From Arthrobacter sp. OAP107 (lineage in GTDB: Bacteria > Actinomycetota > Actinomycetes > Actinomycetales > Micrococcaceae), in assembly GCF_040546765.1 (NCBI RefSeq), contig NZ_JBEPOK010000001.1, forward strand, positions 4,390,373 to 4,422,372: a stretch of 32,000 nt of DNA, given 5' to 3'. The translations under genes and the position numbers were made by a program. The notes under the pieces were generated by a model. It searched no databases. It was not told the origin of the DNA and worked only from the letters and a program-made list of their open reading frames with translations. How positions within the stretch are numbered: position 1 is the stretch's first letter; each line of letters opens with the position of its first letter. Shown here piece after piece: positions 4,298 to 18,937 of the stretch.

Positions 4298-4960
4298 GTG
4301 CGGTACGTTGTGCAAATGGACTTCGGCAATCCGGACACGTGGAGCACGGCGATCTACTTCTGGATCATCCCCGCTGTCCTCGGCGATGCCATCTTTCCGC
4401 CGATCCCGTCCGAGATGGTGCTGATCACGGGCGGTGCCCTGTCCGCCGCGGGCCGGGCCAACCTGTTCCTGGTCGGCGTCCTGTCCGCCACCGCCTCGTG
4501 GCTAGGCGACATGGTGGTGTTCCAGCTGTTCAAGCGCCGCCTGAGCCACGTCCTGGACCGCTGGACATGGGGCCGGAAAGTCCACCGCGGCATCCACGAG
4601 GCCATCGCCAAGGCAGGCCGGTCCTCCGCGTACGGCACCATCATAGGGGCCCGGTTCATCCCGGGAGGACGGCTTGCGACGTCGGCCGCCGCGGGCATCG
4701 CCGACGTCTCCACCCGGGGCTTCAGCCTGTGCGCCGGGCTGGGAGCCGTGCTGTGGGCGACGTGGCTCGTGGGCCTCGGCTACTTCACAGGCTCCACAAC
4801 GCGGCTGCCGTTCTGGGCGAGTTCGCTGATTGGGGTGGCGGTCGGCCTGGTGATCGGCGCCGTCGTGGGCCTGATCGTCACCCGCCGGCGCGGCGACAGA
4901 TCCCCGGTGGACGAACCCGGCAGCGCCTCCGGGCCGGGCACTCAAGCTCCGGGCGCCTAA
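4298..4960 (+). CDS. DedA / VTT-domain family integral membrane protein
   Basis: Multiple hydrophobic segments. DedA-like features seen: FPPIPSEMVLITGG, and RFIPGGR in the loop region. The start could be GTG 4298 or ATG 4316. Confidence 0.7.
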   Translation: MRYVVQMDFGNPDTWSTAIYFWIIPAVLGDAIFPPIPSEMVLITGGALSAAGRANLFLVGVLSATASWLGDMVVFQLFKRRLSHVLDRWTWGRKVHRGIHEAIAKAGRSSAYGTIIGARFIPGGRLATSAAAGIADVSTRGFSLCAGLGAVLWATWLVGLGYFTGSTTRLPFWASSLIGVAVGLVIGAVVGLIVTRRRGDRSPVDEPGSASGPGTQAPGA

Positions 4961-4986
4961 GCCTTAGAAACCTAAACACCTATGCC

Positions 4987-5292
4987 CTAAACGGGCGCCC
5001 AGCGGCCGCGGCTGCGGCGGAGCACCGAAAGCGAGCCTGTCAGCGCAACGCGTTCGACGGCGTCGCGCATCACGGCTGCCGATTCCCGTGCCGCGCTGTT
5101 CTCACCGTTGTATTCGGTGGGCTCCACGAGGAACCGCAGATTCAGTTGCGGCACACCGCCCGCCAGCTCCAGCTGGTGCGACTCCACATGGTGCCGCGAC
5201 CGCAGCGCCTCGACTGCGGTGTCCATCACGGCTTCGGGAGGGTTGCCCGGCTTCAGCCCGGTGATCTTGAGTCTGGTCTGGAAGGACGGCAT
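4987..5292 (-). CDS. Hypothetical protein, 101 aa, with no recognised domain
   Basis: The ORF has strongly G/C-biased third codon positions, typical of real genes here. It is divergent from hypA. No motif recognised. Confidence 0.45.
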   Translation of the reverse strand: MPSFQTRLKITGLKPGNPPEAVMDTAVEALRSRHHVESHQLELAGGVPQLNLRFLVEPTEYNGENSAARESAAVMRDAVERVALTGSLSVLRRSRGRWAPV

Positions 5293-5330
5293 CCTTCAAC
5301 CCTAGCGCCGCGGGCGAAAGACGCAGCACG

Positions 5331-5370
5331 CACGGACACGGCACCCACGGACACGGCGCGAACGGACACC
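5331..5370. promoter_or_regulatory. Three direct ACGGACAC repeats at 15-nt spacing upstream of hypA. Candidate regulator-binding array.
   Basis: CACGGACACGGC (5331-5342), CACGGACACGGC (5346-5357) and AACGGACACC (5361-5370). The array lies about 130 nt upstream of the hypA ATG (5498), in the divergent intergenic region. Confidence 0.3.
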
Positions 5371-5497
5371 TGTGGCCCCAAAAATCCGGCTCCGCAGGGC
5401 CTCAACTGTCCGTTCGCGCCGGGGTGGGGCGCACGGGTTATGCGGACGGTTGCGTTTTGTCCGGCGCGAGCCTATCTTGGCAGGAAGGGGCGCGATT

Positions 5498-5827
5498 ATG
5501 CACGAACTCTCCATCACGCAGGGCCTTGTCGACGCCGTTCTCTACCGGACAGGCGAACGGCCGGTCACGGCGGTCAACCTGAGGATCGGTCCCCTTTCCG
5601 GCGTGCTGGCTGATGCCGTGCGCTTTTGTTTTGACGTGGCAGTGGCGGGCACTCCGCTGGCCGGCGCGCGGCTGCAGATCGAGGCGCCGGAAGGCCGGGG
5701 ACGGTGCCGCAGCTGCCAGGACGAATTCAAGCTGAACGATCCCATCCTGCTTTGCCCTTGCGGAAGCGCGGACGTCGAAGTCCTCAGCGGCCGTGAGCTG
5801 ATGCTGGTGTCCGTGGAGGTGGCATAG
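5498..5827 (+). CDS. hypA: Hydrogenase nickel-insertion protein HypA
   Basis: N-terminus MHELSITQGLVDAV carries the MHE Ni-binding motif. Zinc-site cysteines are CRSC...CPCG. The RBS GGAAGGGG (5483-5490) precedes the ATG at 5498. The listed ORF start at 5372 is upstream junk. Confidence 0.9.
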   Translation: MHELSITQGLVDAVLYRTGERPVTAVNLRIGPLSGVLADAVRFCFDVAVAGTPLAGARLQIEAPEGRGRCRSCQDEFKLNDPILLCPCGSADVEVLSGRELMLVSVEVA

Positions 5828-5830
5828 GAC

Positions 5831-6772
5831 ATGTGTACAACATGCGGCTGCGGAGACGAGGCCGGCACCCGCATTTCAAACCTCGCAGGCGACCTGCAGA
5901 CACCCGGGCACGGGCATCTGCACAGCCATACGGATGAGCACGGCCACACCTTCACACACGAGCACCCGGACTCCACCGATCACCTCCACGTCCATGCAGA
6001 CTCCCATGAGCACAACCACGGGCATACGAACGGGCACCACCCTGCGGATCCGGGCACGGAGACCATCGTGCTCGAACAGAACCTGCTGGCCAAGAACGAC
6101 CTGTTGGCCGCCACCAACCGCGGCTGGCTGGCCGGCCGGGGAGTCCGGGCGCTCAACGTCATGAGTTCACCGGGCGCCGGCAAGACCACCCTCCTGGTCC
6201 GCACGCTGACGGAGCTTGGCGGGCGCCTCAACGCAGGCGTCATCGAAGGTGACCAGGAGACGTCCCTCGACGCTGACCGCATCCGCGCCACCGGGCGCCC
6301 GGTCATCCAGATCAACACCGGAGCGGGCTGCCATCTCGACGCCGACATGCTCCGGCACGGCCTTGATGCGCTGTCCCCGGAGCCGGGCTCCACGGTCTTT
6401 ATCGAAAATGTGGGCAACCTCGTCTGCCCCGCGCTTTTTGACCTCGGCGAAACAGCCAAGGTGGTGATCGTCTCGGTAACGGAAGGTGATGACAAACCCC
6501 AGAAATATCCGCACATGTTCATGGCAGCCGACCTCGTGATCGTCAACAAGTCGGACCTGCTCCCCTACGTCGACTTCGACGTCGACCAGTGCCTGCGGCG
6601 CATCCGGCAGATCAATCCGCGGGCCGAAGTCCTCACCCTGTCCGCCACCACCGGCGAAGGCCTCGCCGCCTGGTACGGCTGGCTCGACGGCGCCGCCTCC
6701 CATGTGGCGGCGCCCACCCCCGGGGTTGCCCGGCCAGAACCCCTGGCTGGTTCCCTGACAGAAGCACACTGA
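5831..6772 (+). CDS. hypB: Hydrogenase nickel-incorporation GTPase HypB with a His-rich tract
   Basis: N-terminal MCTTCGCG is the CxxCGC high-affinity Ni site. A 44-residue stretch (5909-6040) holds 17 His. P-loop [19 protein letters not shown], and NKSDL G4 motif. Confidence 0.92.
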
Positions 6773-6802
6773 GCCCCGCAAGGGGCACTGAAAGAGGCAA
6801 CG

Positions 6803-7861
6803 ATGCCTACGGAAACTTCCCTTAAGGCCGAAGAAGCCCTTATCCACGTGCTGTGGATCAACGCAGGGCTCAGTTGCGACGGCGACTCGGTGGCGCTGAC
6901 CGCAGCCACCCAGCCGAGCGTCGAGGAGATCGTCCTCGGGGCGCTGCCCGGCCTGCCGAAGATCGCCATGCACTGGCCACTGATCGACTTTGAATGCGGC
7001 CCGCAGGAAGGGGCAGACGATTTCCTGGAGTGGTTCCGCAAGGCGGACCGCGGCGAACTGGAACCGTTCGTGCTGGTGGTGGAGGGCTCCATCCCCAACG
7101 AGAAACTCCACGACCCCGGCGGCTACTGGTGCGGCTTCGGCAATGACCTCGAGACCGGGCAGCCGATCACCACCAGCGAATGGCTGGACCGTCTGGCTCC
7201 CAAGGCCACCGCCATCATCGCCGCCGGAACCTGCGCCACCTACGGCGGCATCCACGCCATGGCGGGCAACCCGACCGGAGCCATGGGCGTACCGGACTAC
7301 CTCGGCTACGACTGGAAGTCCAAGGCCGGAATTCCCATCGTGTGCGTGCCCGGATGCCCGATCCAGCCTGACAACCTTTCTGAAACCATGACCTACCTGC
7401 TCTACCAGGCCACGGGCCAGGCACCGATGATTCCGCTGGATGAGGCACTGCGTCCCACGTGGCTGTTCGGCAAGACGGTCCACGAGGGCTGCGACCGGGC
7501 CGGCTACTACGAGCAGGGCGACTTCGCCACCGAGTACGGTTCCCCCAAGTGCATCGTCAAGCTCGGCTGCTGGGGTCCCGTGGTGAAGTGCAACGTGCCC
7601 AAGCGCGGCTGGATGAACGGCATTGGCGGCTGCCCCAACGTCGGCGGCATCTGCATCGGCTGCACCATGCCCGGCTTCCCGGATAAGTTCATGCCGTTCA
7701 TGGACGAGCCTCCCGGCGGCAAGCTGTCCACCAGCACCATCCGCCCCTACGGCTCCGCCATCCGGACCCTGCGGGGCATCACGACGCACACCCTGGACCA
7801 GGAGCCCAAGTGGCGCCGGCCCGGACCCGAGCTCCTCACCGGGGCCCGGCGCACCTGGTAA
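6803..7861 (+). CDS. hhyS: [NiFe]-hydrogenase small subunit, group 1h/5 type, with no Tat signal
   Basis: LWINAGLSCDGDSVAL, with CDGD in place of the usual CxGC. Cys-rich Fe-S ligand regions: GTCATYGG, CVPGCP, GCDRAG, CIVKLGCWGP..KCN, GGCPNVGGICIGC. There is no RRxFxK twin-arginine leader. RBS AAAGAGG lies upstream. Confidence 0.9.
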   Translation: MPTETSLKAEEALIHVLWINAGLSCDGDSVALTAATQPSVEEIVLGALPGLPKIAMHWPLIDFECGPQEGADDFLEWFRKADRGELEPFVLVVEGSIPNEKLHDPGGYWCGFGNDLETGQPITTSEWLDRLAPKATAIIAAGTCATYGGIHAMAGNPTGAMGVPDYLGYDWKSKAGIPIVCVPGCPIQPDNLSETMTYLLYQATGQAPMIPLDEALRPTWLFGKTVHEGCDRAGYYEQGDFATEYGSPKCIVKLGCWGPVVKCNVPKRGWMNGIGGCPNVGGICIGCTMPGFPDKFMPFMDEPPGGKLSTSTIRPYGSAIRTLRGITTHTLDQEPKWRRPGPELLTGARRTW

Positions 7862-7889
7862 CCCACCCACGTCCAGACAGGCGAAGACA

Positions 7890-9684
7890 ATGACGTCAAC
7901 AATTCCCATGGGTTCCGGAAGCGGAACGGGCAACAACAACCTGGTGGAGATGAACTGGGACCCCATCACCAGGATCGTCGGCAGCCTCGGCATCTACACG
8001 AAAATCGATTTCGAGAACAACCAGGTCGTGGAGTGCAAGAGCACGTCCTCGATCTTCCGCGGCTACTCGCTCTTCATGAAAGGCAAGGACCCGAGGGACG
8101 CGCACTTCATCACCAGCCGTATCTGCGGGATCTGCGGCGACAACCACGCGACCTGCTCCTGCTACACGCAAAACATGGCCTACGGCGTCAAGCCGCCGAA
8201 CCTGGGTGAGTGGATCGTCAACCTGGGCGAGGCCGCCGAGTACATGTTCGACCACAACATCTTCCAGGAGAACCTGGTGGGCGTGGACTACTGCGAAAAG
8301 ATGGTCTCCGAAACCAACCCTGGTGTCCTGGCCAAGGCGGAGAACACCAGGGCGCCGCATGAGGCCGACCACGGCTACCGGACCATCGCGGACATCATGC
8401 GCTCGCTGAACCCCTTCACCGGCGAGTTCTACCGCGAAGCGCTCCAGGTCAGCCGCGCCACCCGCGAAATGTTCTGCCTCATGGAAGGCCGCCACGTGCA
8501 CCCTTCCACGCTCTACCCGGGCGGCGTGGGGACAGTGGCCACCATCCAGCTGATGACGGACTACCTCACCCGGCTCATGCGCTACGTCGAGTTCATGAAG
8601 AAGGTCGTCCCGATGCATGACGACCTGTTCGATTTCTTCTACGAGGCCTTGCCGGGCTACGAGCAGGTGGGGCTGCGGCGGACGCTGCTGGGCTGCTGGG
8701 GCTCGCTGCAGGATCCGGACTACTGCAACTTCGAGTACAAGGACATGACCGAGTGGGGCCGGAAGATGTTCGTCACGCCGGGCGTGGTGGTGGACGGCAA
8801 GCTGGTCACCACCGACCTGGTGCGGATCAACCTGGGCCTGCGGATCATGCTCGGCTCCTCGTACTACGAGGACTGGGAAGGCCAGGAAATGTTCGTCACC
8901 CACGATCCCCTGGGCAACCCGGTGGACCGCAGGCACCCCTGGAACCAGCACACCAACCCGCGGCCGCAGAAGCGCGACCTTTCAGACAAGTACAGCTGGG
9001 TCATGTCCCCGCGCTGGTTCGACGGCCAGGACAACCTCGCGCTGGACACCGGCGGCGGCCCGCTGGCACGGCTCTGGGCCACGGCGCTCGCCGGACTCGT
9101 GGACATCGGCTACCTCAAGGCCACCGGCAGCAGCGTGCAGATCAACCTGCCCAAGACCGCGCTGAAGGGACCCGTCACCTTCGAGTGGAATATCCCGCAG
9201 TGGAGCAACACGCTCGAACGCAACCGCGCCCGGACCTACTTCCAGGCCTACGCCGCGGCTGCTGCACTCCACTTCGCGGAAAAGGCCCTCGAGGAAATCC
9301 GCGCCGGCCGCACCAAGACCTGGGAAACGTTCGAAGTCCCCGATGAAGGCATCGGCTGCGGGTTTACCGAAGCGGTCCGCGGCGTCCTGTCCCACCACAT
9401 GGTGATCCGTGACGGCAAGATCGCCAACTACCACCCCTACCCGCCCACCCCCTGGAACGCCAGCCCCACCGACTCCAACGGCGTGGCCGGCCCCTATGAG
9501 GATGCGGTCCAGGGACAGCCGATCTTCGAGGAGAATGACCGGGAGCACTTCAAGGGCATCGACATCATGCGCACCGTCCGCAGCTTCGATCCCTGCCTGC
9601 CCCTGCGGTGTCCACATGTACCTGGGCAACGGGCAGACGCTGGACATGCTGCACTCCCCCACCCAGACCCTGACCGGCGAGTAG
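7890..9684 (+). pseudogene. hhyL: [NiFe]-hydrogenase large subunit, group 1h/5, interrupted by a 1-nt insertion. Frame 0 covers 7890-9602 and frame +1 covers 9604-9684. The restored product would be 597 aa.
   Basis: The L1 motif TSRICGICGDNH (8112-8147) is intact. At the L2 motif the DNA reads AGC TTC GAT CCC TGC CTG CCC C TGC GGT GTC CAC ATG. Frame 0 gives SFDPCLPLRCPHV... followed by Arg/Pro-rich read-through to 9902. Skipping one C of the run 9600-9603 gives SFDPCLPCGVHMYLGNGQTLDMLHSPTQTLTGE*, stop 9682-9684. The start ATG at 7890 lies 29 nt after the hhyS stop. Confidence 0.9.
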
Positions 9685-9687
9685 GCC

Positions 9688-10803
9688 ATGCTCGGCGGGG
9701 ACCGGCCGCCGCTGCAGAACGGCGACCAGATCGATACACTCCTCGACGCCCTCGGCGCCGGCGGGGCCGTGGCCCGCGGCCGGGCCGAGGACCTGGTCCG
9801 CCAGGTGACAGACCTCTACGGCGCCGGACTCCAGCGGATCATGGAAATCCTGCAGGCCCAGGGAAAGCTCGACGACGGCACGCTGGAAGCGCTGACCGCT
9901 GACAGCCTGGTGGCCGGGCTCCTGGTGATCCACGGGCTGCACCCCCAGTCGATGGAGGCACGGGTGGCCGCGGCGCTGGACAGCGTCCGGCCCTACCTGG
10001 GCTCCCACGGCGGCGACGTGGAACTGGAAGGCATCAGCCCCGACGGCGTGGTGCGGCTCAAACTGCTGGGCACCTGCCAGGGCTGCCCGTCGTCGTCCGT
10101 CACCCTCAAGTACGCCGTCGAGGAGGCCATCCAGAACGCAGCCCCGGAAGTGACGGCGATCGACGTCGTCGAGGCGGAAAAGCAGCCGGGCTCCCCGGCG
10201 CTGATTCCGGTGGACTCGCTGCTGGTCCGGGTGAACAATCCGGCGGGCGGCACGCCGGCGGAATCCTGGCACGACATGTCCGGCGGCACGTGGGAACCTG
10301 TTCCGGAGGTCGCAGGGCTCGAACCCGGGGAGGTGGCAGGTTTCCTCGTCGGCGGCTACGCGGTGCTGGCCTGCCGTACCGGGCAGGATATCTACGCGTA
10401 CCGCGACTACTGCCCGCGCTGCACCGGTTCGATGGCCGGCGCCGTGCTGCAGCGCGCCCTCGCGGCGCCTGTTGGCGGAGGCCTGCTCACCTGCCCCACA
10501 TGCCGCGGCCACTTTGACGTGAGACGGGCGGGCATGTGCCTGGAGGACAAGGACCTGCACCTGGAGCCGCTTCCGCTGCTGGTCCGGAACGGCGTGATGT
10601 CCGTGGCGGTCCCGACGGCGTCCCTGCAGTCCGTGCCGCTGCCGGTTGCCCCGGCGCCGGCTACCACGGCGGCCGTGACGCCGGCGGCCGTGACACCGGT
10701 GCAGGCTCTCCCGCTGGTGACGCCGGCCGGGCTGGAACCCGTCCCGGCGCCGGCAGCCGCCATGGCGCCGGAACTGCAGGCAGCCGCGGGGCAGGACCGC
10801 TGA
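9688..10803 (+). CDS. NifU-domain putative Fe-S protein (HhyE-like) with a C-terminal CxxC...CxxCxxH module and a Pro/Ala/Val-rich tail
   Basis: NifU C-terminal-type region VRPYLGSHGGDVELEGISPDGVVRLKLLGTCQGCPSSSVTLKYAVEEAI. CPRC at 10411-10422 and CPTCRGH at 10492-10512. The ATG lies 3 nt after the hhyL stop. Confidence 0.75.
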   Translation: MLGGDRPPLQNGDQIDTLLDALGAGGAVARGRAEDLVRQVTDLYGAGLQRIMEILQAQGKLDDGTLEALTADSLVAGLLVIHGLHPQSMEARVAAALDSVRPYLGSHGGDVELEGISPDGVVRLKLLGTCQGCPSSSVTLKYAVEEAIQNAAPEVTAIDVVEAEKQPGSPALIPVDSLLVRVNNPAGGTPAESWHDMSGGTWEPVPEVAGLEPGEVAGFLVGGYAVLACRTGQDIYAYRDYCPRCTGSMAGAVLQRALAAPVGGGLLTCPTCRGHFDVRRAGMCLEDKDLHLEPLPLLVRNGVMSVAVPTASLQSVPLPVAPAPATTAAVTPAAVTPVQALPLVTPAGLEPVPAPAAAMAPELQAAAGQDR

Positions 10804-10804
10804 C

Positions 10805-11578
10805 ATGAACGTGGAGAACGGAGGAGGTACAGGGCACGGCCCGGGGACCGGCCAGGCCAGCGGCGCCTTGCCGGTGGCCTTACTGCGGCGGATTTCCGCG
10901 AACCGGCCCGCTCCCGCCGCCGGGGAATGCTGCGAAATGTGCGGCGAACCGATTCCCGACGCACACCAGCACGTGGTGGACCTGGAGAGCCACGCGATGA
11001 TGTGCACCTGCCGGCCCTGCTACCTCCTCTTCACCGACGCCGGCGCCCATATGCGCTACCGATCGGTGCCTGACCGGTACCTCTCCTTCCCCGACTTCGA
11101 TCTCGGTCCGGGGCAGTGGGACGAACTGGAAATTCCGGTGGGTCTCGCGTTCTTTTTCCGCAGCTCCAAACTCGGCCGCACGGTGGCCTTCTACCCGGGC
11201 CCGGCCGGGGCCACGGAATCGGAACTGCCGCTGGCCGCGTGGGACGCGGTGCTGGCCTGCAACCCGGCCCTTGGCTTGGCTGCGCCGGACACCGAGGCGC
11301 TGCTGATCCGCGGCCCGGGGCCGGGCCGGGCCGCCGCGGACTGCCACCTCGTTCCCGTGGACGCGTGCTACGAGCTCGTGGGCCGGCTGCGCCGCCTCTG
11401 GCGGGGGTTCGACGGCGGCCAGGAGGCACGCGACGAGCTCACCGCTTTCTTCGAGCGGATCGGCCGCCGCAGCGTTCCGGCCCCGGCAGAGTCCGGCAGC
11501 GCAGCTTCCGGCAGCCCGGACCCCGGCAGCCCTGCTTCCGGGAACGGTGCATCACGCAGCACGGGAGGCTTCCGGTGA
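10805..11578 (+). CDS. Conserved hydrogenase-cluster protein of unknown function (as I recall it, DUF5947-like), with a Cys-rich N-terminus
   Basis: ECCEMCGEPIPDAHQHVVDLESHAMMCTCRPCYLLF, then EIPVGLAFFF...VAFYPGPAGATE. The ATG lies 1 nt after the upstream stop. The family name is from memory and is not verified. Confidence 0.7.
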   Translation: MNVENGGGTGHGPGTGQASGALPVALLRRISANRPAPAAGECCEMCGEPIPDAHQHVVDLESHAMMCTCRPCYLLFTDAGAHMRYRSVPDRYLSFPDFDLGPGQWDELEIPVGLAFFFRSSKLGRTVAFYPGPAGATESELPLAAWDAVLACNPALGLAAPDTEALLIRGPGPGRAAADCHLVPVDACYELVGRLRRLWRGFDGGQEARDELTAFFERIGRRSVPAPAESGSAASGSPDPGSPASGNGASRSTGGFR

Positions 11579-12228
11579 CAGAGCTTTCCTTCGCCGTGCT
11601 GGAGATCCGGCCCGAACCCTACGCAGCCGCGCCCCAGCTGACGGCCAGGCTGCAGGTGACGGAGGGCACCGGCGCCGTGGTGCACGCTGTGGCGCTGCGC
11701 TGCCAGGTCCGGATCCTGCCGCAGCGCCGCGGCTACGTGCCCGAGGAGGAGACGGGACTGCTGGATCTCTTCGGAGACCGCGGCCGCTGGCCCACCACGC
11801 TCAAGTCATTCGTCTGGATGCAGTGCAGCACCATGGTGCAGGGCTTCACCGGCAACACCGAGGTGGACCTGCCGCTGCCCTGCACCTTCGATTTCGACGT
11901 GGCCGCCGCCAAGTACCTGCACGCCCTGCGCGACGGCGAGATACCTCTGGAGCTGCTGTTCTCCGGAACCGTCTTTACCAGGGGGCAGACGGGGTTCACG
12001 GTGGAACAGGTGCCATGGGACCTCGAGGCGTCCTACCGGCTGCCCGTCGCCGCCTGGCGCAGCCTGATGGACCAGTATTTCCCCAACGCCGGATGGATCC
12101 GCCTGGACCGCGACGTCCTGGCAGCCCTCGCCCGGTACAAGTCCGCGCGCGGCCTCACGTCCTGGGAAGCCACGATGGAGAAACTGCTCGCCGAGGCCAC
12201 CGCCGATGTGTCCGGGGAACTGCCATGA
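11575..12228 (+). CDS. Conserved hydrogenase-cluster protein of unknown function (as I recall it, DUF6084-like), 217 aa
   Basis: The GTG start overlaps the upstream stop (GTGA, 11575-11578). Sequence begins VTELSFAVLEIRPEPYAAAPQLTARLQV... The upstream part of the listed 370-aa ORF is Arg/Gly/Pro junk overlapping the previous gene. Confidence 0.7.
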   Translation: MTELSFAVLEIRPEPYAAAPQLTARLQVTEGTGAVVHAVALRCQVRILPQRRGYVPEEETGLLDLFGDRGRWPTTLKSFVWMQCSTMVQGFTGNTEVDLPLPCTFDFDVAAAKYLHALRDGEIPLELLFSGTVFTRGQTGFTVEQVPWDLEASYRLPVAAWRSLMDQYFPNAGWIRLDRDVLAALARYKSARGLTSWEATMEKLLAEATADVSGELP

Positions 12229-13595
12229 ACACCAGCCTGGCCCTTGCCCGCGCAGTCGCCGACGCCGTCCTCTACGAGGGCTACCTGCTCTACCCCTACC
12301 GCGCCTCCTCCCAGAAGAACCAGGCCCGCTGGCAGTTCGGTATCCTTGGTCCCCCGGGCGCCGCGGCGGACGGCAGCGGGGAGGAACCGTCCATGTCCGC
12401 CGACTGCCTGCTGGCCCCAGGGACGCAGGCCGGGCTGGAAATCCATTTCCGCTTCCTGCAGCTGCAGACCCGCACGGCAGAAAAAGCGGACGACGGCGGA
12501 GGGTTCACTCCCGTGGACAGCCTCGCCGTGGGCGGTGCGAACTGGCTGAGCTGGGACGAGGCAGTCGAGCAGGAAAACACCTTCGGCCCCTTCTCCGTGG
12601 CCCGGCTCCGGGCCGGGCTGGTCCTCCCCGTGGATGTTCCCGAGGGACTCGACGTCGAGGAACTCAAGGACGACGCCGGGAGGCCGGCCGGCCGACTGGT
12701 GCGCCGCCGTCGTGCTCTCAGCGGTGAACTGCGGCTCAACGCCGCCGAAGATTCCGGCGGGCTGCTGCGGCTCAGCGTCACCGCGGCCAACACGGCCGGT
12801 CCCCTGCCTGCCGGGAACCGGCAGGCAACCATTGCGGCCTCCTTCATCGGCGCGCACATGCTGCTCGGCGTGCGGGACGGGGATTTCGTCTCGCTGCTGG
12901 ACCCGCCGGCGTGGGCGCAGCCGGCAGCACGGCTGTGTTCCCAGCACCGCTGCTGGCCCGTGCTTGCCGGGCCCCAGGGCCAGACCGACGTGCTGCTGAT
13001 CTCACCGATCATCCTTTACGACCACCCCGCCGTGGCCCCGGAAAGTTCGGTGGCACTGTACGACTCCACCGAGATCGACGAGATCCTTACACTGCGGGTG
13101 CTGACGCTGACTGACGAGGAAAAGGCCGAGGCGCGGGCGACGGATCCGCGGGCTGCCGCCGTCATCGACCGCTGCGAGGAGATGTCGCCCGAGGACCTCC
13201 AGCAGCTGCACGGCGCCCTGCGGAACCCGCACGCGTTCGCCGCGGACCCGGCCGACGCGTGGACCACGGCCAGGGAGGACGTTCCCTGGTGGAATCCCGA
13301 GGCGGAGGCCAGCGTCCGGCCGGACATGGACGCCGTCGTGATCAACGGCGTCCCGGTGGCGCGCGGCAGCCGCGTGCGCGTGCACCCGAAGCGGCGCGCC
13401 GACGCCCAGGACCTGTTCTTCGGCGGCCAGACCGGGCGGGTCACCAGCGTGCATTTCGACGTCGACGGCAGCACCCACGTCGGGCTCGTGCTGGAACAGG
13501 ATCCGGCGGCTGATCTCCATGAGGGCTACGGCCGGTCCTTCTACTATGCGCCCGACGAACTGGAACCGCTGGACGGAAAGGAACCCCCGCAATGA
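12225..13595 (+). CDS. Conserved hypothetical protein, 456 aa, in the hydrogenase cluster
   Basis: The ATG overlaps the upstream stop (ATGA, 12225-12228). Sequence begins MNTSLALARAVADAVLYEGYLLYPYRASSQKNQARWQFGILGP... Third-position GC bias holds throughout. No recognised catalytic motif. Confidence 0.7.
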   Translation: MNTSLALARAVADAVLYEGYLLYPYRASSQKNQARWQFGILGPPGAAADGSGEEPSMSADCLLAPGTQAGLEIHFRFLQLQTRTAEKADDGGGFTPVDSLAVGGANWLSWDEAVEQENTFGPFSVARLRAGLVLPVDVPEGLDVEELKDDAGRPAGRLVRRRRALSGELRLNAAEDSGGLLRLSVTAANTAGPLPAGNRQATIAASFIGAHMLLGVRDGDFVSLLDPPAWAQPAARLCSQHRCWPVLAGPQGQTDVLLISPIILYDHPAVAPESSVALYDSTEIDEILTLRVLTLTDEEKAEARATDPRAAAVIDRCEEMSPEDLQQLHGALRNPHAFAADPADAWTTAREDVPWWNPEAEASVRPDMDAVVINGVPVARGSRVRVHPKRRADAQDLFFGGQTGRVTSVHFDVDGSTHVGLVLEQDPAADLHEGYGRSFYYAPDELEPLDGKEPPQ

Positions 13596-13711
13596 AGGCA
13601 ATAGGAATGGCCACTGTTTCCGTGCTGGCAGCGATGGCCCTCTGGGGCATCTACGTCGGGATCCGCGCAGTTCCGGATATCCGGCGGTACATGAAAGTGC
13701 GGCGGATGTGA
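13592..13711 (+). CDS. 39-aa single-pass membrane micro-protein, absent from the supplied ORF track
   Basis: My own translation: MKAIGMATVSVLAAMALWGIYVGIRAVPDIRRYMKVRRM*. The ATG overlaps the upstream stop (ATGA, 13592-13595). Its stop overlaps the GTG of the protease gene (GTGA, 13708-13711). One hydrophobic helix precedes a basic tail. It may correspond to the small 'DUF6893-like' proteins of actinobacterial hydrogenase loci, from memory and unverified. Confidence 0.55.
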   Translation: MKAIGMATVSVLAAMALWGIYVGIRAVPDIRRYMKVRRM

Positions 13712-14214
13712 CCGCCGGCGTACTCGTCGCCGGCGTCGGGAACATGTTCCTGCACGACGACGGCTTCGGCCCCGAGGTGGCGCGGCACCTGGCCGCCCAG
13801 CCACGGCCGCCGGCCTCCGACGTCCGGGTGGTGGACTACGGCATCCGCGGCATGCACCTGGCCTACGATCTCCTGGCCGGCGTCGACACCCTGATCCTCG
13901 TGGACACGGTGCCGCCCGACGGGACCTCGGCCCCCGGCAGCATCCGCGTGCTGCAGGTCAGCTCGGCGGACCTGGACAGCAGGGCGTCGTTTGACCCGCA
14001 CGGCATGGATCCGGCAGCAGTGCTGGTCCGGCTCCGGTCGATGGGCGGCAGCCTGCCTGCCACGTATGTGGTGGGCTGTGTCCCCGCAGACCTGTCCGAG
14101 GGTATCGGCCTCTCGCCGGCGGTGGCAGCGGCGGTGCCAGAAGCCGTTACGGCCGTCGGGTCCCTGCTCGGCCAGCAGTCTTCCGCTCCCAACCGGTCGT
14201 CCACATCGAACTAA
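13708..14214 (+). CDS. Hydrogenase maturation endopeptidase (HyaD/HybD/HupD family), 168 aa
   Basis: VLVAGVGNMFLHDDGFGPEV is the GxGNxxxxDDGxG motif. Also LILVD and DPHGMDP. The GTG start at 13708 is in frame with the listed ORF 13519-14214. Confidence 0.88.
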   Translation: MTAGVLVAGVGNMFLHDDGFGPEVARHLAAQPRPPASDVRVVDYGIRGMHLAYDLLAGVDTLILVDTVPPDGTSAPGSIRVLQVSSADLDSRASFDPHGMDPAAVLVRLRSMGGSLPATYVVGCVPADLSEGIGLSPAVAAAVPEAVTAVGSLLGQQSSAPNRSSTSN

Positions 14215-14227
14215 GGCGGTGTCATAC

Positions 14228-14533
14228 ATGTGCCTAGGAATTCCCGGCAGGGTCGTTGAACTCCTCGAGGGCTACGGCGGCCAGCTCGCACTGGTCGATG
14301 TGGCCGGAGTGCAGCGGAAGATCAATATTGGGCTGCTGGATGAGGGGCCCCTGGAACCCGGTACCTGGGTCCTCATCCACATGGGCTTCGCGCTGGAACG
14401 CGTGGACGCCGCGGGCGCGGAACAGGCCATGGACGGGCTGGAACTGATGGGCCGCCCGGCGGACACCGCGCCCGGACCCCAGCCGGCACAACCACCACAA
14501 GGAGAGCAGCATGTCACCCACGAACCAGCCTGA
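14228..14533 (+). CDS. hypC: Hydrogenase assembly chaperone HypC/HupF family, with a Pro/Gln-rich C-terminal tail
   Basis: Canonical N-terminus MCLGIPGRVVEL, followed by VDVAGVQRKINIGLL and WVLIHMGFAL. Confidence 0.88.
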   Translation: MCLGIPGRVVELLEGYGGQLALVDVAGVQRKINIGLLDEGPLEPGTWVLIHMGFALERVDAAGAEQAMDGLELMGRPADTAPGPQPAQPPQGEQHVTHEPA

Positions 14534-14861
14534 TCCCGCCGACAAGGAACAGGGCACCTCTTCGGGCACAGCACCCGGTACGGCGCGGGCGTTCGGCAGC
14601 GAACCGCCGCTGAAGGAACCCGCCCAGCCCGGAGCAGACGAAACTCCGGAGGACGCGGCACCGGCGCCCGCCGGCGTCGGCGTCAGCACCACCCGCAGGG
14701 GCGAGGACGTCGTCAAGGAGGAGGGCTCCGAACCGGGACGCGAGCACACGGGCACCGACGAATCCCCTGCCGGCAGGCCAACCGGCGAGTCGTCCGCCCG
14801 CGATGCGACCGCCGTCAAGAGCCCCGAGCATCCCGACAGCGCGGCGCCACAGTCACCCTAG
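14511..14861 (+). CDS. Low-complexity acidic Pro/Glu/Gly/Ala/Ser/Thr-rich protein, 116 aa, predicted to be disordered
   Basis: A strong SD, AAGGAGAG (14499-14506), lies 4 nt before the ATG at 14511. It overlaps the hypC 3' end by 23 nt. No Cys and no hydrophobic core. Whether it codes is uncertain. Confidence 0.4.
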   Translation: MSPTNQPDPADKEQGTSSGTAPGTARAFGSEPPLKEPAQPGADETPEDAAPAPAGVGVSTTRRGEDVVKEEGSEPGREHTGTDESPAGRPTGESSARDATAVKSPEHPDSAAPQSP

Positions 14862-14890
14862 GCCGCCGCCGCCATAGGCAGCCGCCCTGG

Positions 14891-14931
14891 ATCCCGGCCC
14901 CGCCCGGGGCCGGGATTGGAGTTCGACTCCA
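14891..14931. terminator. Tandem GC-rich hairpins between convergent genes. Candidate bidirectional intrinsic terminator.
   Basis: ATCCCGGCCCC (14891-14901) pairs perfectly with GGGGCCGGGAT (14906-14916) around a 4-nt loop. TGGAGT-TCG-ACTCCA follows immediately (14917-14931). There is no clear U-tract. Confidence 0.45.
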
Positions 14932-14944
14932 GTGCTCCGATGCT

Positions 14945-15766
14945 CTAATGCTCGAGTGCTATGGCCGCTCCGCGGTGCTCCACGCCGGAATTGGCAATGC
15001 GCAGGTGCCGGGCCGTGAAGTGCTTCAGCTGCTGCAACTGGTGGGCCGACAACCGGTCACACACCCAGTCCCAGTGCAGCGAGACGACGTCGCCCACTGC
15101 GAGCCCGGCCACGAACCCGGTCCCGTTCACGGCAAACTTGGCCGATTCCACCACGGGTTCGCCGATGTCCAGGGCCGTGCCGTCCCACACCAGCGGCCGG
15201 GACCGCACCACGGCGTCGTCGCCGGTCATTGCGAGCACCTGTCCCCAGCGGATCCGGCACCTGTCCAGCACGTTCAGTGCGGTGGCGTGCCGGCGCTCGT
15301 CGCGGAGCAGGCCCAGCCACGGATAGATTTCAAAGACGTGGAAACTGTGGTGCGGGACCCCGCCCGCCAGCACGCCTTCCACCAGGTGCGGAAACTGCCG
15401 TCCGGTGCGCGCCCGGAAGCGGTCCTCCATGGAATTTCCGATGTTCGTGATGCCGACGGAATCCAGCAGGGTGTTGCCCACCCAGTAGGCCTCCACCACG
15501 CGGGCATCCAGCGGATCGGCGATGCCGTGCGATCCCGCGATCAGTTCGAGGTACGGCCACGCGCCGGCAAAACCCTTGGCCAGTTCGCGGAGCCCCTGAT
15601 CCGTGACGCCGGACTGCCCATAGTGCAGCAGGGCATCACTGTCCGGCGGACCGCAGCTGCCCCGCGAATTGGGCGGATAGGCATAGCGGACAAACAACTG
15701 GGCACCATCGATAACCATCCCGTGGCCACCTTCTGCGAGCGTCTTCTGAAAGTAGCACCGGGCCAT
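14945..15766 (-). CDS. Conserved hypothetical protein (as I recall it, DUF6390-like), about 273 aa
   Basis: GAQLFVRYAYPPNSRGSCGPPDS...HSFHVFEIYPW...GDVVSLHWDWVCDRLS. The start is placed at ATG 15764-15766 (MARCYFQ...), with an alternative at ATG 15718. The N-terminal 188 codons of the listed 461-aa ORF overlap the opposite-strand binding-protein gene and are rejected. Confidence 0.6.
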   Translation of the reverse strand: MARCYFQKTLAEGGHGMVIDGAQLFVRYAYPPNSRGSCGPPDSDALLHYGQSGVTDQGLRELAKGFAGAWPYLELIAGSHGIADPLDARVVEAYWVGNTLLDSVGITNIGNSMEDRFRARTGRQFPHLVEGVLAGGVPHHSFHVFEIYPWLGLLRDERRHATALNVLDRCRIRWGQVLAMTGDDAVVRSRPLVWDGTALDIGEPVVESAKFAVNGTGFVAGLAVGDVVSLHWDWVCDRLSAHQLQQLKHFTARHLRIANSGVEHRGAAIALEH

Positions 15767-15899
15767 GGCGCCGACAAGGGACGGGCCGCCGCCGGCAATT
15801 CCCGGAACGCAGCCGGCAATCCCTGGAGCGCCGGCGAAGGCGTTGACAGCCCTGCCCCCAAAGCGGATGCTGTGAGGACCCACTCGCAGGGAGTCAACG

Positions 15900-17033
15900 A
15901 TGACAGCTGCAGACCTGAACCGCCGCGCCGCCCTACAGGTGTTTATTGCCGGCGGCTCCGCCGCCCTGCTGGCCGGGTGCGGTGCATCCGGCACCGCACC
16001 GCCGTCGTCCCCTTCGGGCAGCACCAACAGCATCAGCCTCACGGACCAGCGCGGCAAAACCCTCTCCTTCGCCCGGCCGGTGGCCCGGGTGGTGACCATC
16101 CCGATGCCGTCGGCGTCGCTGCTGGTGGCCGTCGACCGCAGCGCCGACCACCTCGCGGCCATGCACAACGCCTCCTGGGCGGCCATGCGCGACGGCGTCA
16201 TGGGCACCATGTTTCCGGCCGCCCTGGACCTCCCCCACGACATCGCCACGCAGGACTTCACCGCCAACGTTGAGAGCATCCGGGCCCTCAACCCGGACAT
16301 GGTGGTCCAATGGTCGGACGCGCAGCTCATCGAACCCCTGGAGAAGGCGGGACTTCAGGTGCTGGGACTGAAGAACTCCGGAACCCAGGAGGATGTGGAC
16401 GCCTGGGTCAGCATGTTCGCCACCATGCTCGGCAAGCCCGACCGTGCCACCGAGCTCAAAACCCGCAGCGACCAGGAGCTTGCCGAGGTCAGGTCCCTGG
16501 CGGCCGGACGGGCGTCCAAGGGCCCAAGCATCCTGTACTTCAACCGCTTCACGGGCGGACTCAAGGTTGCCGGCGCCAACAGCTACAACGACTTCTACAT
16601 CAAGCTGGTGGGCGGCTCCAACCCGCCCACCGGCAAGGACCCCCTGACCGGTTCCGGCATGGTGGGCGTCGACATCGAGCAGGTGCTGCGCTGGGACCCC
16701 GAGGTCATCCTGCTGGGCAACTTCGACGCCGCCATGCCGCAGGACGTCTACTCGGACCCGGTGTGGCAGAACGTGGCCGCGGTGCGCTCGAAGCGCGTGT
16801 ACAAGGTCCCGCTGGGCGGCTACCGCTGGGATCCGCCCGGGCAGGAGTCACCGCTGATGTGGCACTGGCTCGGCGACATCGCCTTCCCGCAGCAGAGGTC
16901 CGCGGTGCGGAGCAAGGCGTCCGAATACTTCAGGTTCCTGTACAACCACGAGCTCACCAAGGGTGAACTGGACAAGATTCTCTGGACCGCGGAAAACGGG
17001 CAGTCCGCCGACTACCGGCAGTTCAATGCTTGA
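15900..17033 (+). CDS. ABC transporter substrate-binding lipoprotein, FecB/BtuF-type (Peripla_BP_2, for siderophore, heme or another metal chelate)
   Basis: The N-terminus NRRAALQVFIAGGSAALLAGCG carries a twin-Arg-like leader and an LAGC lipobox. Class III binding-protein architecture. FecCD permease and ATPase genes follow. Confidence 0.85.
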   Translation: MTAADLNRRAALQVFIAGGSAALLAGCGASGTAPPSSPSGSTNSISLTDQRGKTLSFARPVARVVTIPMPSASLLVAVDRSADHLAAMHNASWAAMRDGVMGTMFPAALDLPHDIATQDFTANVESIRALNPDMVVQWSDAQLIEPLEKAGLQVLGLKNSGTQEDVDAWVSMFATMLGKPDRATELKTRSDQELAEVRSLAAGRASKGPSILYFNRFTGGLKVAGANSYNDFYIKLVGGSNPPTGKDPLTGSGMVGVDIEQVLRWDPEVILLGNFDAAMPQDVYSDPVWQNVAAVRSKRVYKVPLGGYRWDPPGQESPLMWHWLGDIAFPQQRSAVRSKASEYFRFLYNHELTKGELDKILWTAENGQSADYRQFNA

Positions 17034-18186
17034 TGGGGCCGGTTCCCCGCGCTTGCGCAGGCGGCCGCGGCCGGCGCAGCCGGCACTGCCGCGGGCGGGG
17101 CCTTTTCCTGCCCCGGACGGCACTGCAAATCAAACCGTAGGGAGGCGCCGGGAGGGAGAACGACGGCGGGAAGCCGCCGTCGTCGTTCCCATCGCCTTAG
17201 CTGCCTGCTTCCTTGCCGCCGTCGCGGTGCTGGCGCTGGCGGTGGGGCGGTACAGCGTGCCGCTGGACCACGTGGTCCAGATCCTGGCCGGGCAACTCGC
17301 GCCGGTTCCGGTTCAGGCCACCGGCACCGAGCAGAATGTGGTGCTGCTGGTCCGGTTGCCCCGGGTCCTGCTCGCCTTGCTGGTGGGCGGCGGCCTGGCC
17401 ATCGGCGGCGCCGCGCTGCAGGCCATTTTCCGCAACCCCCTGGTCAGCCCCGAGATCATCGGGGTGTCTGCCGGCGCATCCTTCGGCGGCGCCCTGGCGC
17501 TGCTGCTCGGCCTGGGTCCGTTCCTGCTGGTGGGCGGTTCCTTTGCCTGCGGGCTGCTGGCCCTCGGGACGCTGTTCCTGATCACCTCGGGACGCTCGGG
17601 CACACCGATGCTCATGATCGTGCTCGGCGGTGTGGTCACCGGGTCCTTCTTTTCGGCCCTGGTGGCACTGGTGACCTACATTGCGGACCCCAACACCACA
17701 CTGCCCGCCATCGTCTTCTGGCTGCTGGGCAGCGTGTCCACGGCCACCTTCGGCAAAGTCGCCGTGGCCCTGATCCCTGTCCTCGGCGGGGCCGCCGTCC
17801 TCCTGGCCCTGCGCTGGCGGATCAACGTGCTGTCCCTCGGCGACGAGGACGCTGCTGCCCTTGGTGTCCGCCCCCGCCCGCTCCGCTGGGTGGTGCTCGT
17901 GGCCGTGGCCCTGATCGTGGCCGGTGCGGTGGCGGTCAGCGGCGCCGTCAGCTGGGTGGGCCTGGTGATCCCGCACCTCGCCAGGATGTGGGTGGGCCCG
18001 GACCACCGGGTCCTCCTGCCCGTGTCCTTCCTGCTCGGCGGCGCCTACATCGTCCTGGTGGACACCATCGCCCGGACGGCCACCGCCGGGGAAATCCCGC
18101 TCGGCGTCCTCACGGCCCTGATCGGCGCGCCCGTGTTCTTCATGCTCCTGCACCGGAACCGCGAGAAGGTCTGGGACAGTGCTTGA
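17026..18186 (+). CDS. FecCD-family ABC transporter permease
   Basis: Multiple TM segments. Typical motifs: LLVGGGLAIGGAALQAIFRNPLVSPEIIGVSAGA and LTALIGAPVFFMLL. The start is uncertain: ATG 17026 (8-nt overlap with the upstream stop) or ATG 16963. Confidence 0.82.
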   Translation: MLDGAGSPRLRRRPRPAQPALPRAGPFPAPDGTANQTVGRRREGERRREAAVVVPIALAACFLAAVAVLALAVGRYSVPLDHVVQILAGQLAPVPVQATGTEQNVVLLVRLPRVLLALLVGGGLAIGGAALQAIFRNPLVSPEIIGVSAGASFGGALALLLGLGPFLLVGGSFACGLLALGTLFLITSGRSGTPMLMIVLGGVVTGSFFSALVALVTYIADPNTTLPAIVFWLLGSVSTATFGKVAVALIPVLGGAAVLLALRWRINVLSLGDEDAAALGVRPRPLRWVVLVAVALIVAGAVAVSGAVSWVGLVIPHLARMWVGPDHRVLLPVSFLLGGAYIVLVDTIARTATAGEIPLGVLTALIGAPVFFMLLHRNREKVWDSA

Positions 18187-18937
18187 ACTCGACGGCGTTG
18201 GCTTCGGCTATTCGTCCCGGGACTGGGTGTTCCGCGGCGTCAGTTTCCGTGTGCCGCCGGGAACTGCCACCGCCGTGCTGGGCCCCAACGGCAGCGGCAA
18301 GACCACGCTGGTGCGCTGCGCCGCGGGGTTGCTAGACCCGCGGGAGGGAACCGTCCGGCGGAGTGAAAGCGCCGGCTACGTGCCGCAGGCGCATGGCAGC
18401 GCCTTTGCCTACCGGGCGCTGGACATGGTCCTGATGGGGCGGGCGCGGCACGTTGGCGTGTTCCGGACACCCGGTCCGTCCGACCACGCGGCAGCACTGG
18501 AGGCGATGGAGCGGGTGGGCGCGGCCGGGCTGCGGGACCGGCGTTTCCCCACACTGAGCGGCGGCGAGCAGCAGCTGGTCCTGATCGCCCGGGCCATTGC
18601 CGCCGGCTCGCCCATCCTGGTGCTGGACGAGCCCGCCACCGGCCTCGACCTCAAGAACCAGGCCCGGGTACTGACGCTGCTGCGCGAACTGATGGCCGAC
18701 GGCATGGCCCTGCTCCTGAGCACCCACCATCCAGATCACGCCCTGCACCTGGCCGACCGCGTGGTCCTGCTGGGCTCGGGCGGCGTGCGGACAGGCCCGG
18801 CCGCGGAACTCCTGACCGACGCCCAGCTGTCCGCCCTCTACGGCGTGCGCGTTAGCACCGTGGCTTACTCCGACGACGGCGACGGTGTCCCCAGCACGAC
18901 GCCCCGCCGTACCATCGTGGTGCACTACGGCAGCTGA
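18179..18937 (+). CDS. ABC transporter ATP-binding protein (FecE/FepC-like)
   Basis: Walker A GPNGSGKTTL, signature LSGGEQQ, Walker B ILVLDEP, and H-loop STHH. The GTG start overlaps the permease stop by 8 nt. Confidence 0.9.
   Translation: MLELDGVGFGYSSRDWVFRGVSFRVPPGTATAVLGPNGSGKTTLVRCAAGLLDPREGTVRRSESAGYVPQAHGSAFAYRALDMVLMGRARHVGVFRTPGPSDHAAALEAMERVGAAGLRDRRFPTLSGGEQQLVLIARAIAAGSPILVLDEPATGLDLKNQARVLTLLRELMADGMALLLSTHHPDHALHLADRVVLLGSGGVRTGPAAELLTDAQLSALYGVRVSTVAYSDDGDGVPSTTPRRTIVVHYGS

Follow-up and report, generated by a model that had tools for sequence, protein, structure and literature searches.

[NiFe]-hydrogenases of group 1h (formerly group 5) allow soil bacteria to live on trace hydrogen, and they are responsible for the uptake of atmospheric H2 by soils, which is described as the main sink of the global hydrogen cycle. 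Which proteins assemble such an enzyme in air, anchor it at the membrane and connect it with the respiratory chain? The question is raised by a 32,000-nt stretch of the Arthrobacter sp. OAP107 genome (the window; ~69% GC; all coordinates are window positions unless a locus is named), in which five open reading frames, ORF1 to ORF5, lie between hhyL, the gene for the hydrogenase large subunit, and the gene for a maturation endopeptidase. No other lineage-specific candidates for the three tasks lie beside hhySL. The analyses presented here show that they form a group 1h-specific accessory set, inherited with hhySL as a translationally coupled block that runs into the endopeptidase gene and hypC. 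We assign a probability of roughly 0.55 to the reading that the set is a physically linked maturation and assembly complex working with the endopeptidase, with the smallest product as a possible membrane tether.

A conserved, translationally coupled gene block

The block and the hydrogenase genes that it adjoins are laid out as follows, with E-values after the names of the matching families.

6803-7861, plus strand: hhyS, structural gene; product 82-99% identical to HhyS of 82 related loci
7890-9684, plus strand: hhyL, large subunit, with a 1-nt insertion in the C run at 9598-9601
9688-10803, plus strand: ORF1, assigned as hhyE; 371 amino acids (aa); Pfam NifU, 1.6e-22
10805-11578, plus strand: ORF2, DUF5947 protein; 257 aa; Pfam DUF5947, 1.4e-72
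11575-12228, plus strand: ORF3, DUF6084 protein, homologue of PHG068; 217 aa; Pfam DUF6084, 1.9e-97
12225-13595, plus strand: ORF4, homologue of PHG069; 456 aa; outside every Pfam and NCBIfam family
13592-13711, plus strand: ORF5, DUF6893 mini-protein; 39 aa; Pfam DUF6893, 4.2e-9
13708-14214, plus strand: [NiFe]-hydrogenase maturation endopeptidase of the HupD/HycI family, GTG start; Pfam HycI, 2.6e-14; TIGR00072, 2.6e-34
14231-14533, plus strand: hypC/hupF chaperone gene; Pfam HupF_HypC, 1.4e-18; TIGR00074

The genes follow one another with almost no spacing. The TAG of hhyL (9682-9684) is separated by 3 nt from the ATG of ORF1 at 9688, and the TGA of ORF1 (10801-10803) by a single nucleotide from the ATG of ORF2 at 10805. 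The remaining junctions are overlaps: GTGA at 11575-11578 (ORF2/ORF3), ATGA at 12225-12228 (ORF3/ORF4), ATGA at 13592-13595 (ORF4/ORF5) and GTGA at 13708-13711 (ORF5/endopeptidase). All six junctions listed in the initial annotation proved exact when checked on the window sequence, and the product lengths of 371, 257, 217, 456 and 39 aa were confirmed. Third-position GC is 0.84-0.885 in ORF1 to ORF4 and 0.725 in the short ORF5, typical of real genes at ~69% GC, which supports all five as coding. A scan for promoters and terminators over 4900-16500 returned counts at chance level.

The closest matches of the window are in Arthrobacter, with HhyL 98% identical to that of Arthrobacter sp. ISL-65 and ORF4 90% identical to that of Arthrobacter sp. 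NPDC056493. A scan anchored on hhyL, with one genome per species, returned 593 relatives, of which the best 80 were analysed. These are all Actinomycetota and span Arthrobacter, Rhodococcus, Nocardia, Mycobacterium, Streptomyces, Actinoplanes, Aeromicrobium and Jatrophihabitans; the addition of three plasmid loci (Cupriavidus necator pHG1, Methylocystis and Mycobacterium) brought the set to 83. All 81 informative loci carry ORF1 to ORF4 in unchanged order (81 of 83 overall, the two exceptions being contigs that end right after hhyL), and the ORF5 peptide was found in 80 of 81, with a weak candidate in the remaining one. The earlier suggestion of a dedicated module is borne out in that the genes are a companion set inherited with group 1h hhySL.

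Close spacing is shared to varying degrees. The 4-nt ORF3/ORF4 overlap recurs in 75 of 81 loci, that of ORF2/ORF3 in 50-59 of 79 and that of ORF1/ORF2 in 46 of 74, while the 3-nt gap between hhyL and ORF1 is seen in 26-34 of 80. ORF4 and the peptide gene share a 4-nt overlap in 25 of 73 loci, and most others lie within ~13 nt of each other.

A chain of gene fusions ending in the maturation protease

Each adjacent pair occurs as a single protein in some lineage: HhyE::DUF5947, DUF5947::DUF6084, DUF6084::ORF4 and ORF4::maturation protease. Ten long members of the ORF4 family were scanned; seven carry a C-terminal HycI domain and one an N-terminal DUF6084 domain. Independent assemblies from JGI, NCBI and Logan contain the ORF4::HycI form with the same full length, and its sequences fall into four clusters with mutual identity below 50%, each with at least two full-length members. 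On a clean 52-kb contig its context is hhyS-hhyL-NifU-like-DUF5947-DUF6084-[ORF4::HycI]-DUF6893-YceI-hypA-hypC. The DUF6084::ORF4 fusion is represented by at least 12 full-length 765-aa entries, from four sources, in a 90%-identity cluster of 28. In that lineage the preceding 375-aa gene joins the N-terminal, NifU-like region of HhyE to DUF5947 (34% identity, E = 6e-15), and this HhyE-N::DUF5947 fusion is present in two independent assemblies. A DUF5947::DUF6084 fusion lies on a JGI contig with intact neighbours. Most fusions of this last kind were downgraded as evidence, several of the 31 inspected showing frameshifted motifs of error-prone metagenome-assembled genomes.

As read from these sequences, the chain argues that the products act together, physically, at the protease step. 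Since the fused protease is itself a maturation enzyme, ORF4 most likely acts at the maturation step, and a chain that ends in the protease directs attention first to the processing of HhyL.

Frameshift-riddled copies from metagenome-assembled genomes also occur elsewhere in the data: three of the loci (L075, L076 and L086) and many ENA proteins show fragmented hhyL genes and false fusions. Inference from fusions therefore needs replication in independent data.

The NifU-type protein HhyE

HhyE has been described as carrying a NifU-like domain with a CxxC motif and two further C-terminal CxxC motifs (Islam et al. 2019). ORF1 has both features and, judged by these motifs, is HhyE. Its NifU/Nfu domain spans aa 93-158, with C130 and C133 forming the CxxC motif inside PF01106; a Rieske-like domain follows at aa 201-306, in which C229, C242xxC245 and C269xxC272 are invariant in 69 sequences. 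The protein also has a conserved N-terminal helical region and a Pro/Ala-rich tail. Its C-terminal fold is probably Rieske-like; ORF1 falls below the Pfam cut-offs for Rieske_2 (25.9 bits vs 27) and Rieske (16.6 vs 20.3), and a PDB sequence search matched NifU domains only. A Rieske centre was rejected, as the ligand positions hold CxxC/CxxC and not the Cys/His pairs of CxH...CxxH. In this ORF1 differs from HucE of the group 2a hydrogenase Huc, a NifU-domain paralogue that is equally essential (PMC6883350): the signature of HucE is a true Rieske one, CxH...CxxC, that of HhyE being CxxC...CxxC (Islam et al. 2019).

The NifU CxxC motif is missing from HhyE of C. necator, of Methylocystis and of the fused metagenomic form (for example, LQGK for CQGC), in the following genes.

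10758-11336 of the C. necator pHG1 locus (L001): PHG066
10777-11301 of the Methylocystis locus (L002): HhyE homologue
3035-4162 of metagenomic locus L089: HhyE homologue, fused form

The proteobacterial proteins (192 aa in C. necator and 174 aa in Methylocystis) are also too short for the C-terminal Cys domain. The N-terminal helical residues L36, D72, H85, P86 and R92 are kept even in these CxxC-less homologues. Because the motif has been lost in some lineages, the universal role of HhyE cannot depend on a bound cluster, and electron relay through HhyE cannot be universal. PHG066 is annotated as 'NifU family protein' although it lacks the NifU CxxC. In Mycobacterium smegmatis, deletion of hhyE abolishes Hhy activity, and the Hhy zymogram band is lost even with the artificial acceptor nitroblue tetrazolium (PMC6883350).

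ORF2 is a predicted metalloprotein

The DUF5947 ligand set comprises C43, C46, H54, H56, C67, C69, C72 and C188 in ORF2 numbering (CxxC-x7-HxH-x10-CxCxxC plus C188). All eight residues are invariant in seven of seven aligned sequences from Actinomycetota, Alpha- and Betaproteobacteria and metagenomic lineages, and each is at least 99% conserved over 82 sequences. DUF5947 is thus predicted to be the universal Cys6His2 metalloprotein of the set, and this ligand set singles it out for attention. ORF2 also carries a Gly/Ser/Pro-rich low-complexity tail. A published proposal makes its homologue PHG067 a candidate electron acceptor, and MSMEG_2717 has been described as a PHG067 homologue (Islam et al. 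2019).

The natural DUF5947::DUF6084 fusion was modelled with AlphaFold2 (AF2) at a mean predicted local distance difference test (pLDDT) score of 85.6. In this model DUF5947 consists of short hairpins followed by an alpha/beta domain, and DUF6084 of a beta-sandwich with three C-terminal helices. A Foldseek search with the model returned generic Ig-like sandwiches only and nothing specific for DUF5947.

ORF3 and ORF4 resemble protein-binding modules

ORF4 belongs to a large family (3857 representatives of 50%-identity clusters at E<=1e-3). From the N- to the C-terminus it comprises the invariant motif LYEGYxLYPYR..N..RW, a beta-rich core (aa 40-240), an acidic helical segment that is conserved (aa 260-330) and an SH3-like domain (aa 370-450). 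Its AF2 model has a pLDDT of 66.8, with the core modelled confidently. Foldseek matched the C-terminal domain to SH3-like proteins, for example PetP, with a template modelling (TM) score of 0.78. The most conserved segments (aa 1-37 and ~260-330) are modelled at low confidence, which is compatible with folding on a partner; the shallow alignment may also account for it. Two sets of matches to ORF4 were set aside. A low-TM Foldseek match to DrmA and many matches to viral glycoproteins (PDB, BFVD) were regarded as noise, and a Phage_TAC_7 match as spurious (20.3 bits vs a cut-off of 25).

Sequence and profile searches of PDB found no relative of ORF2 to ORF4 with a solved structure, and profile-profile comparison revealed no relationship of ORF4 to DUF6084 or to DUF5947. 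As modelled, the folds of ORF4, DUF5947 and DUF6084 look like protein-binding modules, and none points to a cofactor or to catalysis. Searches of Pfam, NCBIfam and PDB sequences detected no cytochrome, haem, flavin or quinone-binding domain in ORF1 to ORF4, and none of the four has a transmembrane segment by Kyte-Doolittle hydropathy (19-residue window, threshold 1.6). ORF2 to ORF5 match no hydrogenase-maturation family (HypA-F, HypC/HupF, HyaE, HyaF/HupH or rubredoxin-type) in Pfam or NCBIfam; they may work like maturation factors while belonging to none of those families.

The ORF5 mini-protein as a candidate membrane tether

ORF5 is assigned to DUF6893 with 36.7 bits against a gathering cut-off of 24.6. 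It consists of a single hydrophobic helix and a basic C-terminal tail ending ...PDxxRYxKxRxM-COOH, in which D-11, R-8, Y-7 and M-1 are invariant and P-12 and R-3 nearly so. By the hydropathy threshold given above, it alone among the operon products has a transmembrane-grade stretch (19-residue maximum 1.88), which makes a membrane-anchoring role credible. The positive-inside rule would place the basic tail on the cytoplasmic side.

The peptide was detected in 35 loci by tblastn and in 79 of 81 with a hidden Markov model (HMM; 28 full-length matches), and a six-frame search added L075. It is 39 aa long in 73 of the 79 cases. Its gene sits between ORF4 and the protease gene in 73 loci and after the protease gene in five, including pHG1, and in one metagenome-assembled genome it lies behind ORF4 though the protease is encoded elsewhere. 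The pHG1 copy is an unannotated DUF6893-like ORF (MKGFLKYLVLPALVVALLANIKDIRRYIRIRSM) at ~14645-14746 of L001, between the protease gene (PHG070) and hypF. On the Methylocystis plasmid pMpar-2, a weak candidate lies at ~14340-14424 of L002, between the protease gene and hypC (…RDIVRYIKITMM and stop, E = 0.41).

These features bear on a known property of the enzyme. Hhy is reported in the membrane fraction only and resists 5% cholate, although it has no transmembrane region of its own. The near-universal peptide is a good, if putative, candidate for this cholate-resistant association and a concrete one for the tether, which the initial annotation had called unresolved and which is still so described in print (PMC13332983). 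The fuller proposal is that the mini-protein is the missing group 1h membrane anchor, its tail docking either HhySL or the complex of HhyE, DUF5947, DUF6084, ORF4 and protease; we advance this tentatively, as a rather unlikely possibility. If it were true, an oxygen-insensitive enzyme would be matured at the membrane and handed over beside the quinone pool, and the set would be a previously unrecognised membrane-tethered assembly line for a hydrogenase independent of twin-arginine translocation (Tat). The peptide is unmentioned in the literature that could be searched.

Among the metagenomic loci, a YceI-family gene stands directly behind the DUF6893 gene in L084 (12396-12911), L087 (11044-11565) and L088 (4361-4873); a member of the cluster of the L087 protein is named Acidimicrobiaceae. 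YceI proteins bind polyisoprenoids, and this adjacency suggests a quinone link.

Maturation, electron transfer or a permanent scaffold

In the proposed mechanism, the products of ORF1 to ORF4 and the endopeptidase would constitute one physical complex, an assembly line that would mature both subunits, HhyL and HhyS, under aerobic conditions in the cytoplasm. The metal-cluster side would be served by DUF5947 and by HhyE, the latter as a NifU-type carrier in Actinomycetota and as a scaffold free of cysteines in other lineages. DUF6084 and ORF4 would hold or present the HhyL precursor for C-terminal cleavage and pairing with HhyS. More speculatively, the DUF6893 peptide would be embedded in the membrane, its basic tail on the cytoplasmic side, and dock the machinery or the finished enzyme. 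In addition to the fusions, the position of the accessory genes among hyp and protease genes supports a role in maturation, as do the failure of nitroblue tetrazolium to rescue the hhyE deletion (PMC6883350) and the loss of cysteines from HhyE of C. necator. The C. necator enzyme purified by Schafer in 2013 is said to have had two subunits and to have been active. Group 1h enzymes, of which that of C. necator has been characterised, are described as HhyL and HhyS only (PMC13332983). Purified Huc consists of HucS, HucL and HucM and itself reduces menaquinone analogues, with HucE unmentioned (PMC10017518).

Several observations weigh against this assignment. ORF2 to ORF5 show no homology to a known maturation factor, searches of Pfam, NCBIfam, PDB sequences and profiles, and Foldseek being negative or generic, and a literature search found no functional study of DUF5947, DUF6084, DUF6893, PHG066-069 or MSMEG_2714-2717. 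On native gels HhyE is reportedly found together with HhyS and HhyL (PMC6883350), and group 1h loci of Methylacidiphilum reportedly lack hhyE. The invariant Cys/His residues of DUF5947 could form a redox centre, as proposed for PHG067. Adjacent coupled genes fuse most easily, which makes their fusion weaker evidence than that of unlinked genes, and many ENA DUF5947::DUF6084 fusions are visibly frameshift artefacts. The sample is also biased toward Actinomycetota, comprising the best 80 of 593 relatives plus two Proteobacteria.

Some of these points favour an electron-transfer module, in which Fe-S centres of HhyE, DUF5947 or both would relay electrons from the distal cluster of HhyS to menaquinone, with DUF6084, ORF4 and the peptide as scaffold and anchor. 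The genes lie directly behind the structural genes, H2 oxidation is coupled to the menaquinone pool according to the literature, Hhy has no cytochrome b partner, and HhyE reportedly co-localises with its subunits (PMC6883350). The invariant Cys motifs of actinobacterial HhyE, the eight universal Cys/His residues of DUF5947 and the published proposal for PHG067 point the same way, and no other acceptor is known. However, the artificial acceptor does not substitute for HhyE, the cluster-binding cysteines are absent from HhyE of C. necator and Methylocystis, Huc reduces menaquinone analogues with HucS, HucL and HucM alone (PMC10017518), and ORF4 is fused to a maturation protease. Neither a quinone-binding nor a membrane element was detected in ORF1 to ORF4 by Pfam or hydropathy. 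We regard this explanation as unlikely. The initial annotation had offered electron transfer, assembly and anchoring as options; the dedicated set and a credible anchoring role for ORF5 survive, whereas electron transfer becomes the weaker option, given the lack of rescue by nitroblue tetrazolium, the composition of Huc, the loss of CxxC from HhyE and the ORF4::protease fusions.

A permanent scaffold resembling HucM is the less probable of these two alternatives, and we consider it quite improbable. DUF6084, ORF4 and the peptide would then stay on the mature enzyme, oligomerising it, fixing it to the membrane and opening its way to quinone, with HhyE and DUF5947 maturing it. Such an arrangement would account for a membrane-bound, cholate-resistant Hhy that has no transmembrane segment of its own, and the peptide is the sole transmembrane element, near-universal and coupled to ORF4; beta-sandwich and SH3-like folds are typical of protein-protein modules, and the YceI-family gene behind the peptide gene in several lineages would also fit. 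Against it stand the description of group 1h enzymes as two-subunit (PMC13332983) and the fusion of ORF4 to a transiently acting protease, which fits a transient role better. The maturation and assembly complex is the reading that we prefer; under it, the full set would be relevant to the expression of oxygen-insensitive, high-affinity hydrogenases in other hosts.

Relation to known hydrogenase systems

The five-gene block is a correct description of a recognised set and not a new element. Its conservation has already been remarked on in print (PMC13332983, citing Constant 2011), and papers from 2019-2026 (PMC13332983 among them) call its members conserved hypothetical proteins, with the NifU protein alone tested. 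The HMM and Pfam searches that the initial annotation proposed identified the products as HhyE, DUF5947, DUF6084, the family-less ORF4 and DUF6893. Its statement that none has an assigned role holds for ORF2 to ORF5, still 'hypothetical' in papers of 2025-2026, but not for ORF1, since deletion data exist for HhyE; it is also qualified by the electron-acceptor proposal for the ORF2 homologue PHG067.

The same arrangement is found in C. necator H16, where PHG066-PHG069 (H16_RS31850-31865) lie on pHG1 between an actinobacterial-type large subunit gene and the protease gene. The order there is NifU-like, DUF5947, DUF6084, a 476-aa protein and protease, with overlaps of 4-8 nt, and identities to ORF1 to ORF4 are 39%, 43%, 43% and 35%, the last by tblastn over ORF4 residues 10-451. 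These genes were identified as PHG066-070 because the PHG067 homology is reported in print. pHG1 differs from the window in its short PHG066 (192 aa), which has neither the CxxC motif nor the C-terminal Cys domain, and in the unannotated peptide ORF behind the protease gene. The accessory order is also kept on a Methylocystis plasmid and a Mycobacterium plasmid.

The sampled mycobacterial loci have a gene order identical to that of the window. In M. smegmatis, MSMEG_2718-2715 correspond to ORF1 to ORF4, the likeness of MSMEG_2718 (HhyE) resting on its published description, and HhyE is the sole member of the set with a genetic test. Additional low-complexity tails, rich in Pro and Ala in ORF1 and in Gly, Ser and Pro in ORF2, set the Arthrobacter proteins apart.

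The membrane-bound hydrogenase of C. necator provides an analogy. Its specific accessory proteins, HoxL, O, Q, R, T and V, are encoded together with the protease HoxM. Rubredoxin-type HoxR is required for aerobic maturation (PMC6883350). Both systems place hydrogenase-specific small chaperones and one Cys-rich metalloprotein around an endopeptidase gene for an oxygen-tolerant enzyme, and the likeness is one of analogy only. In contrast to the Hox proteins, ORF2 to ORF5 fall outside the Pfam and NCBIfam maturation families, and group 1h enzymes have no Tat signal on which chaperones of the HoxO/Q type could act; in the window translation, no twin-arginine motif was seen at the N-terminus of HhyS. 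Huc owes both its membrane attachment and its access to quinone to HucM, the kind of role that the initial annotation had proposed for the five products. However, HucM forms an amphipathic coiled-coil tube and not a transmembrane helix (PMC10017518); the ORFs were compared with HucM by description.

A frameshift in hhyL

The hhyL stop at 9684 is correctly placed but is reached only after a +1 frame change. Positions 9595-9604 read CTG CCC C TGC, and the extra C splits the C-terminal Ni-binding motif DPCLPCGVH, placed with a consensus of four HhyL sequences, over two frames as DPCLP|CGVH. The uninterrupted frame continues to 9902, overlapping the start of ORF1. In a DNA alignment the extra C is absent from five related Arthrobacter loci, which read CTG CC(C/T) TG(C/T), among them one with a HhyL 98% identical to that of the window. 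An exact look-up of the window HhyE, DUF6084 and HhyS in a public collection found no copies.

Two causes come into question for the insertion: a sequencing error in the homopolymer, or inactivation of the gene very recently. If it were genuine, the locus would be decaying in Arthrobacter sp. OAP107, with a dead hydrogenase and accessory genes heading for loss. The DPCxxC motif of [NiFe]-hydrogenases supplies metal-ligating cysteines, and an extra C within it that is not shared by the five relatives would fit such decay. However, the nine neighbouring hydrogenase genes are all intact with normal third-position GC, ORF1 to ORF5 share 82-100% identity with their counterparts in the closest relative, and sequencing errors are common in homopolymer runs such as the one that holds the insertion. 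Decay of the locus is accordingly doubtful, with the odds well against it.

Flanking genes

Other genes in the window are listed below. hypA and hypB, encoding nickel-insertion factors, precede the structural genes hhyS and hhyL.

5372-5827, plus strand: hypA; Pfam HypA, 2e-28; true start probably internal to this ORF
5831-6772, plus strand: hypB; Pfam cobW/HypB, 3e-25; His-rich N-terminus
14511-14861, plus strand: putative 116-aa low-complexity ORF, rich in Pro, Glu, Gly and Ala, overlapping the end of hypC
14945-~15730, minus strand: DUF6390 protein; Pfam, 8e-91; convergent just past hypC, the listed ORF extending to 16330
15900-18937: Peripla_BP_2/FecCD/ABC-ATPase transporter, past hypC and the DUF6390 gene
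19067-21877, minus strand: phosphoenolpyruvate carboxylase

hypD, hypE and hypF do not occur within the 32-kb window, whereas other group 1h loci carry them beside the protease gene and hypC. A conserved ~76-aa ORF without a Pfam match lies between hypC and hypD in L084, L087 and L088; this ORF and the YceI-family gene are both absent from the window. At least 37 of 81 loci have a homologue of the DUF6390 protein no more than 10 kb downstream of hhyL, many being cut off by the flank limit, and DUF6390 is another uncharacterised family linked to group 1h hydrogenase loci.

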